DNA from: Thermotogota bacterium ADurb.Bin062
Lineage (GTDB): Bacteria; Thermotogota; Thermotogae; MWEM01
Assembly (NCBI GenBank): GCA_002071085.1
Contig: MWEM01000004.1
Span: 4,277-68,276, forward strand
Length of the DNA stretch: 64,000 nucleotides
Reading direction: 5' to 3'
This document shows, in pieces, positions 29,066 through 29,580 of this stretch; position 1 is the first letter of the stretch; the number at the start of each line of letters is the position of its first letter. Below the pieces are notes generated by a model, which was not told the origin of the DNA, did not search any database, and saw only the letters and a program-made list of their open reading frames with translations. The translations under genes and the position numbers were made by a program.

Positions 29066-29190
29066 AGGCGGCTGCGAGGCGCCTCGCCTCCGTGAGGAGG
29101 GGATAGCGGCTGAAGCGTTTTACGTTCCGGTTACAGCGGTTTCTTGATATTCTGATCAAACGTTTGGATCAGAAGAGGATAGAGCTCGGG

Positions 29191-29580
29191 ATGATATCTC
29201 AAGAGCTCCGAAGGAAAGAAGAGGAGATCGCCGTCCAAAAGAAGAAGATATTTTCTACCCAGGCGGCCTTTCATCAACGAATGCTCTCTAAACAAATCAA
29301 ACCGAGCGAGTTGACCGGGTACAGCCTCTACATAGACGGCCAATATGAAGCCCTGAACGAGCTGATACGACAACGGGCCCAGATCGAGCAACGCTTGGTA
29401 CGATGCAAAGAAGAGTACATAGAGATCAACAGAAACGTGCAAATCTTCGAGCGGCTGAAAGAAAAGAAATATCGTGCCTTCGCTGAAGAGGCGGATTTAG
29501 AAGAACGAAAAGAGATCGATGAGATCGCCATTAGAAGAGTGACGAGAAGCAATCTTTTAGAAGCAGGTGATGAACCGTGA
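29191..29580 (+). CDS. fliJ: FliJ-like flagellar export chaperone (coiled-coil, about 130 aa)
   Basis: C-terminal [35 protein letters not shown] aligns with the FliJ signature (K.FEKLKEK.F..F..E....E.KE.DE.A). ATG 29191 after GAAGAGGA. The ORF-track TTG at 29164 is less likely. Confidence 0.55.

Follow-up and report, generated by a model that had tools for sequence, protein, structure and literature searches.

This locus raises the question of whether a FliJ-like protein encoded among housekeeping genes, between engB and upp, serves the flagellum or something else. The gene lies in a 64,000-nucleotide stretch of DNA (here called the window) from an uncultured Thermotogota bacterium of anaerobic digesters. 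FliJ, ~150 residues long, folds into an antiparallel coiled coil of two helices and acts as the central stalk in the hexameric FliI ATPase ring. Its protruding helix-loop-helix tip binds the FlhA linker, whereupon the membrane export gate becomes an efficient exporter driven by the proton motive force, and the gate activated by FliJ exports rod, hook, and filament subunits. Work by Ibuki et al. and Minamino et al. (summarized in PMC9114704) is said to have identified FliJ as the stalk of the FliI6 ring and its contact with the FlhA linker as the activator of proton motive force-driven export. The initial annotation left two alternatives for the present gene, a flagellar FliJ encoded apart from fliHI or a FliJ-like protein recruited to another ATPase. 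We put at roughly 0.78 the probability that it is an ordinary gene for the flagellar type III export protein FliJ, set among housekeeping genes of this bacterium. The features on which the argument depends are the following.

26050-28470, co-directional with fliJ: lon, from the ORF listing
28472-29065, + strand: engB, a ribosome-biogenesis GTPase of the YihA/YsxC type; an ORF whose orthologs carry MMR_HSR1
29066-29109, + strand: engB-fliJ spacer of 44 nt, from the sequence
29096-29102, + strand: Shine-Dalgarno-like GGAGGGG, 7 nt upstream of the CTG, read from the sequence
29110-29580, + strand: fliJ coding sequence of 156 aa with a proposed CTG start, from profiles, homolog starts, and selection
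29577-30224, + strand: upp, uracil phosphoribosyltransferase, from orthologs with Pfam UPRTase and the NCBI name
30308-31711, co-directional with fliJ: dnaX, from the ORF listing

A FliJ-like identity had been suggested for the mechanical ORF at 29164-29580 (+), which was given as 130 aa long and is in fact 138 aa in the ORF listing. A search with the Pfam FliJ profile PF02050 (gathering score, 28.4 bits) bore out this identity, with scores of 45.3 bits for the 138-aa form and 44.8 bits for the 156-aa form over profile positions 1 to 122 of 123. The 156-aa protein read from the CTG also passed NCBIfam TIGR02473, the FliJ equivalog (curated cut-off, 50.45 bits), at 51.4 bits over profile positions 2 to 141 of 141; this margin of ~1 bit is small and counts against a flagellar FliJ. 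The 138-aa ORF scored 42.4 bits, below the cut-off, with an alignment that starts only at profile position 16. A profile built from 11 Thermotogota orphan FliJs (alignment A2) matched Salmonella FliJ (3AJW) in the PDB with an E value of 2.3e-7 over residues 10 to 146, and no other family appeared below E 0.4 in that search. The C-terminal FliJ signature noticed at the outset proved to be the best-kept part of the family in alignment A1, where L116, K117, E118, K119, E132, D137, E138, and A140 are invariant; both the N-terminal KRFxFRL and the C-terminal LKEKK...DEIA motifs are common to FliJs of other phyla. A profile search over all stop-to-stop frames found a single FliJ in the window, and no sign of a second paralogous FliJ family was seen. 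Neither Pfam, NCBIfam, nor PDB sequence searches matched the protein to the F1 gamma or V1 D stalk families, and the injectisome SctO/YscO proteins gave no significant sequence match (EscO 6NJP_G, E 0.85). Close relatives are already called "flagellar export protein FliJ" by NCBI, and the family and its annotation are known.

Since the alignment of the 138-aa form to TIGR02473 begins at position 16, its N terminus was suspected to be missing. Upstream, the frame has no stop until a TAG at 29104-29106 and reads R-L-KRFTFRLQRFLDILIKR before the TTG at 29164; the 18 codons ahead of this TTG encode KRFTFRLQRFLDILIKR, a canonical FliJ N terminus. No ATG, GTG, or TTG occurs between the upstream stop and 29164. 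The homologs P0007, P0008, and P0009 open with MKRF(T/F)FRLQR(I/F)LDI, and their ATG falls at the codon equivalent to CTG 29110. The aligned first codon is CTG in the window and in L001, L003, L006, and L007, TTG in L008, L009, and L014, GTG in L010-L013 and L015, and ATG in L016. The five loci that keep CTG represent at least three species of the clade, and three of these loci (window, L003, and L007) have an in-frame stop one or two codons upstream, so that the conserved N terminus cannot use a canonical start there. L003, L006, and L007 likewise have a purine run (GGGGAG or GGGGGAG) 7 nt upstream of the CTG, and L001 has GAGGTG 6 nt upstream of its start. Codons 2 to 18 differ from those of L003 and L001 by seven synonymous and two nonsynonymous changes, an excess indicating that the stretch is translated. 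The start-codon, Shine-Dalgarno, codon, and TIGR02473 evidence together set the gene at 29110-29580. Its start is thus most likely CTG 29110, 18 codons before the called TTG 29164, and the mechanical ORF is most likely an N-terminally truncated call. Database calls for the clade are likewise truncated or shifted (138, 149, and 129 aa, plus one of 170 aa whose GTG start is probably part of the Shine-Dalgarno sequence), which a CTG start codon explains. The CTG-start pattern can be inspected at 29104-29166 of the window, at 10001-10012 of L001, at 9974-9982 of L003, and in L006 and L007.

The gene is clearly functional, as its nonsynonymous divergence (pN, 0.108) from the 79%-identical L003 ortholog lies far below the synonymous one (pS, 0.778), which argues against a relic. 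The corresponding pN/pS values are 0.105/0.535 for engB, 0.124/0.606 for dnaX, 0.135/0.609 for ybaB, and 0.087/0.562 for upp.

An AlphaFold2 model derived from a 27-sequence alignment (mean pLDDT, 89.6) predicts a single antiparallel two-helix coiled coil of ~150 residues, as is characteristic of FliJ, with a hairpin made of helices 2-59 and 65-152. Over its full length, the model superposes best on CT670 (3K29), the chlamydial YscO homolog, with TM-scores of 0.88/0.85 and an rmsd of 2.0 Å over 152 columns. This TM-score is the only informative one of the Foldseek search against the PDB, in which generic coiled coils dominate and all E values exceed 0.04, as expected for a bare coiled coil. 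In Salmonella FliJ, binding of the FlhA linker depends critically on Phe-72 (PMC9114704). The aligned residue here is Tyr74, conserved almost without exception across the Thermotogota set; Gln78 stands opposite Leu-76, and Ala81 opposite Ala-79. The Salmonella surface residues Q38, L42, Y45, Y49, and H83 are unmatched in an alignment whose helix-1 register is uncertain. Similar residues are thus found at two of eight conserved Salmonella surface positions (F72 to Y74 and A79 to A81), a count that speaks against a flagellar FliJ and is itself subject to the uncertain helix-1 alignment.

The fliJ gene belongs to a co-directional cluster made up of a xerC/D-like integrase gene, mutS2, murA, a 178-aa ORF, lon, engB, fliJ, upp, dnaX, ybaB, gap, and a pgk-tpi fusion. 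ORFs and ortholog domains confirmed the neighbors named in the initial annotation, lon-engB upstream and upp-dnaX downstream, and the sequence confirmed its overlap of upp with the fliJ stop: the GTG of upp (29577) and the TGA of fliJ (29578-29580) share 4 nt as GTGA at 29577-29580, where relatives have ATGA. The engB start lies 1 nt past the lon stop, and the synteny of engB is kept in L001-L015; upp is 60 to 86% identical to its Thermotogota relatives. No promoter-like (sigma70) or intrinsic-terminator site was predicted in the engB-fliJ spacer. Within it, the minimum-energy fold pairs CCUCC (29087-29091) with GGAGG (29096-29100) in a possible hairpin masking the Shine-Dalgarno sequence, and the L003 spacer offers an analogous CCCC/GGGG pairing. 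We discarded this hairpin as a candidate feature, its z-scores (-1.1 to -1.6) not being significant against shuffled sequences. In L001 (9925-10009), the 62%-identical relative, engB is followed by a clear intrinsic terminator, CCCGCTGAATAGCGGG with a T-run, and then by a -10-like element, TGTATAAT, before fliJ. The L001 fliJ-upp pair looks like a transcription unit of its own, unlike that of the window, whose spacer has neither element. The window gene may be read through at a low level from the lon-engB transcript and translated from a weak CTG behind a good Shine-Dalgarno site, and upp could be translationally coupled to fliJ termination via the GTGA overlap. For a protein of which each FliI hexamer takes a single copy, a weak start would be fitting.

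The initial annotation had also stated that no other flagellar genes lie nearby, and this held over a wider stretch. Pfam annotation of all large ORFs revealed no flagellar or chemotaxis gene besides fliJ in the 64-kb window, and none of either kind was found in ~11 kb of flanking sequence (~4 kb to the left and 7 kb to the right). tblastn searches with FliF, FliG, FliH, FliI, and other flagellar-locus proteins gave no match around the gene. Beyond both window ends only housekeeping genes were seen, and contigs end ~4 kb to the left. The fliH-fliI-fliJ order, typical of FliJ if not universal, does not occur here, with neither fliH nor fliI in the window or its flanks; the position of fliJ after fliI is a habit of synteny, not a defining property of FliJ. 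Injectisome genes are absent from the window and from every FliJ locus examined, and atp/ntp ATP-synthase genes are absent from the window. For the lineage as a whole, we searched with the T. maritima FliG residues of the 1LKV alignment. None of the best 120 matches listed was traceable to this MAG; all were at least 75% identical, and those named to genus belonged to Thermotoga, Pseudothermotoga, Thermosipho, and Fervidobacterium. FliG cluster look-ups gave no accession from the window's assemblies among the matches listed. The source lineage (ADurb.Bin062-like; GCA_035394745.1) is abundant in metagenomes of anaerobic digesters. When metagenomes were scanned with Thermotoga FliI, no contig among the matches listed resembled the window in tetranucleotide composition (best r below 0.6). 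Assignment of FliI contigs to fliJ-bearing clades by tetranucleotide correlation was rejected as evidence, because AT-rich Thermotogota all intercorrelate and shared genes inflate r. Our literature search found nothing specific on Thermotogota motility and fliJ placement.

Other features were observed in the window. ARAGORN called an 84-nt tRNA-Arg(CCT) at 50473-50556 (-), with the anticodon at position 37. The call sits inside gatA (amidase; 49543-51045), within the Pfam Amidase match, and is probably a false positive. The PGK-TIM fusion, a feature known from Thermotoga, is encoded at 33081-35144 (+) by a 687-aa ORF whose TTG start overlaps gap; relatives are called at 652 aa, and the true start is probably ~35 codons further in. 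Large helicases of the SNF2 family are encoded at 15687-19157 (+) and 44581-47835 (-); one of the two has a SWIM zinc finger and DUF3670. The first helicase gene adjoins a YhgA-like transposase (Transposase_31; 19340-20365, +) that is absent from the syntenic stretch of L001 and L003. Finally, a 195-aa DUF6115 protein (334-921, -), whose cluster members are labeled MalT-type or NarL/FixJ-type regulators by IMG, was found on 92 recorded contigs, which tend to break ~4 kb beyond.

The check proposed for the engB-fliJ-upp arrangement found it conserved: 15 Thermotogota loci (L001-L015) share the order lon-engB-fliJ-upp, their FliJ identities ranging from 80% down to 34%. Two further arrangements occur in the phylum. 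Thermotoga-like MAGs (L016, L066, L067, and L160) have glyA-upp-fliJ followed by an ABC transporter, with a 4-nt overlap of the upp stop and the fliJ start, and Defluviitoga tunisiensis, Petrotoga miotherma, and L027 have fliJ between a PAS/sigma54-type activator and a pur operon. The orphan FliJs of D. tunisiensis, P. miotherma, and the Thermotoga-like MAGs belong to the same family as the window protein, at 28 to 42% identity, and are likewise detached from fliHI; those of the Thermotoga-like MAGs also share the 4-nt overlap with upp. They differ from it in gene order (glyA-upp-fliJ-ABC or sigma54 activator-fliJ-pur versus lon-engB-fliJ-upp) and in starting with ATG, GTG, or TTG, whereas the clade of the window uses CTG. 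The enhancer-binding protein directly before fliJ (PAS, sigma54-interaction, and HTH_8 domains; L064 8334-10447, L065 8336-10453, and L027 8327-10450) might be a flagellar regulator in Petrotogales. The fliJ/upp overlap of 4 nt is seen in opposite gene orders at 29577-29580 of the window and at 2399-2402 of L016, 2635-2638 of L066, and 8001-8004 of L160. This linkage is recurrent, has no obvious functional reason, and is a minor curiosity. All Thermotogota loci examined have fliJ and fliHI unlinked, which makes detachment no peculiarity of this genome. Of the orphan status claimed initially, the separation from flagellar genes thus stands and the implied surprise is unwarranted. Gastranaerophilales also have a detached fliJ, away from fliI, after mutS2 and before fliK-flgD (L017 7533-12472); Thermotogota are therefore not alone in having fliJ apart from fliHI.

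To relate the orphans to canonical FliJ, we used 80 FliI loci fetched from metagenomes among the matches listed for Thermotoga FliI. In 68 of them, an HMM built only from orphans picked out the ORF that directly follows fliI, with E values of 1e-6 to 1e-20. Recovery of fliI-adjacent genes by an orphan-only profile indicates that the orphans are of the same family as canonical FliJ. The 12 misses comprised six loci outside the Thermotoga-like group whose contig ends less than 460 bases after fliI, L146, which has 1.4 kb downstream of fliI and no FliJ match, and the Thermotoga-like loci L071-L075. No FliJ match was obtained in the five FliI loci closest to Thermotoga FliI among the matches listed (68 to 71% identity). 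Downstream of fliI lie a beta-lactamase-family gene in L071, Sir2 in L073 and L074, and a methyltransferase gene with MatE in L072; the L075 contig ends at fliI. L073 (7868-11299) has acetate kinase and then fliH-fliI alone. In L070, of the Thermotoga maritima group, fliF-G-H-I is followed at once by a convergent glyS, and in L158, a Guaymas "Thermotoga sp.," fliG-H-I is followed by a periplasmic binding protein. The flagellum of the L070 genome, with fliF-G-H-I and no adjacent fliJ, thus presumably uses an unlinked copy, as in the Thermotoga-like MAGs. In another uncultured lineage (L153-L156, 8356-12449), fliF-G-H is followed by coaX and fliI itself is detached. In Thermotogota, then, the flagellar genes are dispersed as small fragments. 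A passage of a survey preprint (10.1101/2021.01.01.425057) places Thermotogae among the phyla with a conserved fliHIJ order; the order stated there is absent from all Thermotoga-like loci examined.

Could the gene encode a FliJ stalk kept in a lineage without flagella, where it would serve another ring ATPase or a upp-connected role? We consider this unlikely. It would fit the failure to tie any flagellar gene to the lineage among the FliG and FliI matches listed and in the ~11 kb of flanks, the slow evolution of the gene, on a par with its essential neighbors, and its tight embedding among housekeeping genes, no separate promoter being predicted for it. The occurrence of two gene orders in which fliJ adjoins upp and overlaps it by 4 nt, not obviously predicted by random relocation, would also fit. 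Against it, the family is continuous, in that the orphan profile finds fliI-adjacent FliJs and the equivalog model is passed, and a Thermotoga genome whose fliF-G-H-I operon is complete also lacks a fliJ next to fliI. In addition, none of the ~20 orphan-fliJ loci contains an alternative ATPase candidate, and the flagellar negatives for the lineage rest on the matches listed. A related idea, namely, that the upp-linked FliJ of this clade acts outside flagellar export, either instead of or in addition to it, was suggested by the slow evolution, the upp coupling in two orders, the conserved CTG, and the lack of a flagellar gene traced to the lineage, and strikes us as quite improbable. If it were true and the clade had no flagella, it would provide the first case of a FliJ-family stalk taken up by a partner that belongs to neither flagella nor injectisomes. 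Recruitment to another ATPase, the second of the initial alternatives, gained no positive support, with no ATPase partner nearby and no sign of a second paralogous family. The first gained on several counts: Pfam and TIGR02473 models passed, the 3AJW match, the 68 fliI-adjacent recoveries, and Thermotoga-like fliH-fliI loci that, among those examined, never carry fliJ.

Two further readings were weighed. The absence of ATG, GTG, and TTG from the 29104-29106 stop to 29164, and the truncated products given by gene callers (138, 149, and 129 aa), would fit a decaying relic in which the start has passed from ATG, GTG, or TTG to CTG, leaving a pseudogene or only a truncated 138-aa product from TTG 29164. 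Such decay is very hard to reconcile with a CTG that recurs at this codon position across five loci of at least three species, a conserved Shine-Dalgarno sequence at 7-nt spacing before it, mostly synonymous change in the 17 codons after it (7 versus 2), and a whole-gene pN/pS far below 1; truncation would also remove the part of N-terminal helix 1 that pairs with the conserved C terminus in the hairpin model. That an unrelated charged coiled coil should score by chance on a low-complexity FliJ profile is a known hazard, since coiled coils draw spurious hits, and the Foldseek E values above 0.04, with the inter-SH2 region of PI3K p85 among many top matches, illustrate it. Nevertheless, two independent curated models were passed end to end, the 3AJW match is specific, the reciprocal test recovered 68 fliI-adjacent genes, and the N- and C-terminal motifs are common to FliJs of other phyla. 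We regard a chance match as scarcely credible and as effectively refuted by the reciprocal test, the 3AJW match, and TIGR02473.

Most likely, therefore, the gene encodes a real flagellar FliJ, placed apart from fliHI by a habit of the phylum. By virtue of its family, the protein would form the stalk of a FliI ring and contact the FlhA linker, and the lineage would build flagella. It is of the same family as Salmonella enterica FliJ (3AJW) by PF02050 and TIGR02473, with 156 aa versus 147, and shares with it the two-helix antiparallel coiled coil (predicted for the window protein), an aromatic residue at the Phe-72 position, and a C-terminal ...DE(I/F)A. Unlike the Salmonella gene, that of the window lies between engB and upp, not after fliI, and probably starts with CTG. 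SctO/YscO plays the same role as FliJ in a homologous ATPase ring. The likeness of the window protein to SctO/YscO/CT670 is one of predicted structure, 3K29 being the best full-length match of the model, and it differs in having no significant sequence match (EscO, E 0.85) and no injectisome cluster around its gene. F1 gamma and the V/A-ATPase D subunit are homologous coiled-coil stalks in hexameric ATPase rings (PMC9114704 and a passage of 10.1101/2021.01.01.425057); unlike either, the window protein shows no sequence match to them and has no atp/ntp genes near it.

The protein falls in a well-characterized family, and the import of the finding for biology at large is small; only the CTG start and the systematic N-terminal mis-calling are new details. 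They bear on annotation, as every automatic gene call in this clade yields a truncated protein (129 to 149 aa) and the truncated form falls below the NCBI equivalog cut-off. The Thermotogota loci are at odds with the synteny claim in that passage of the survey preprint, which bears on arguments that use fliHIJ synteny for deep ancestry.
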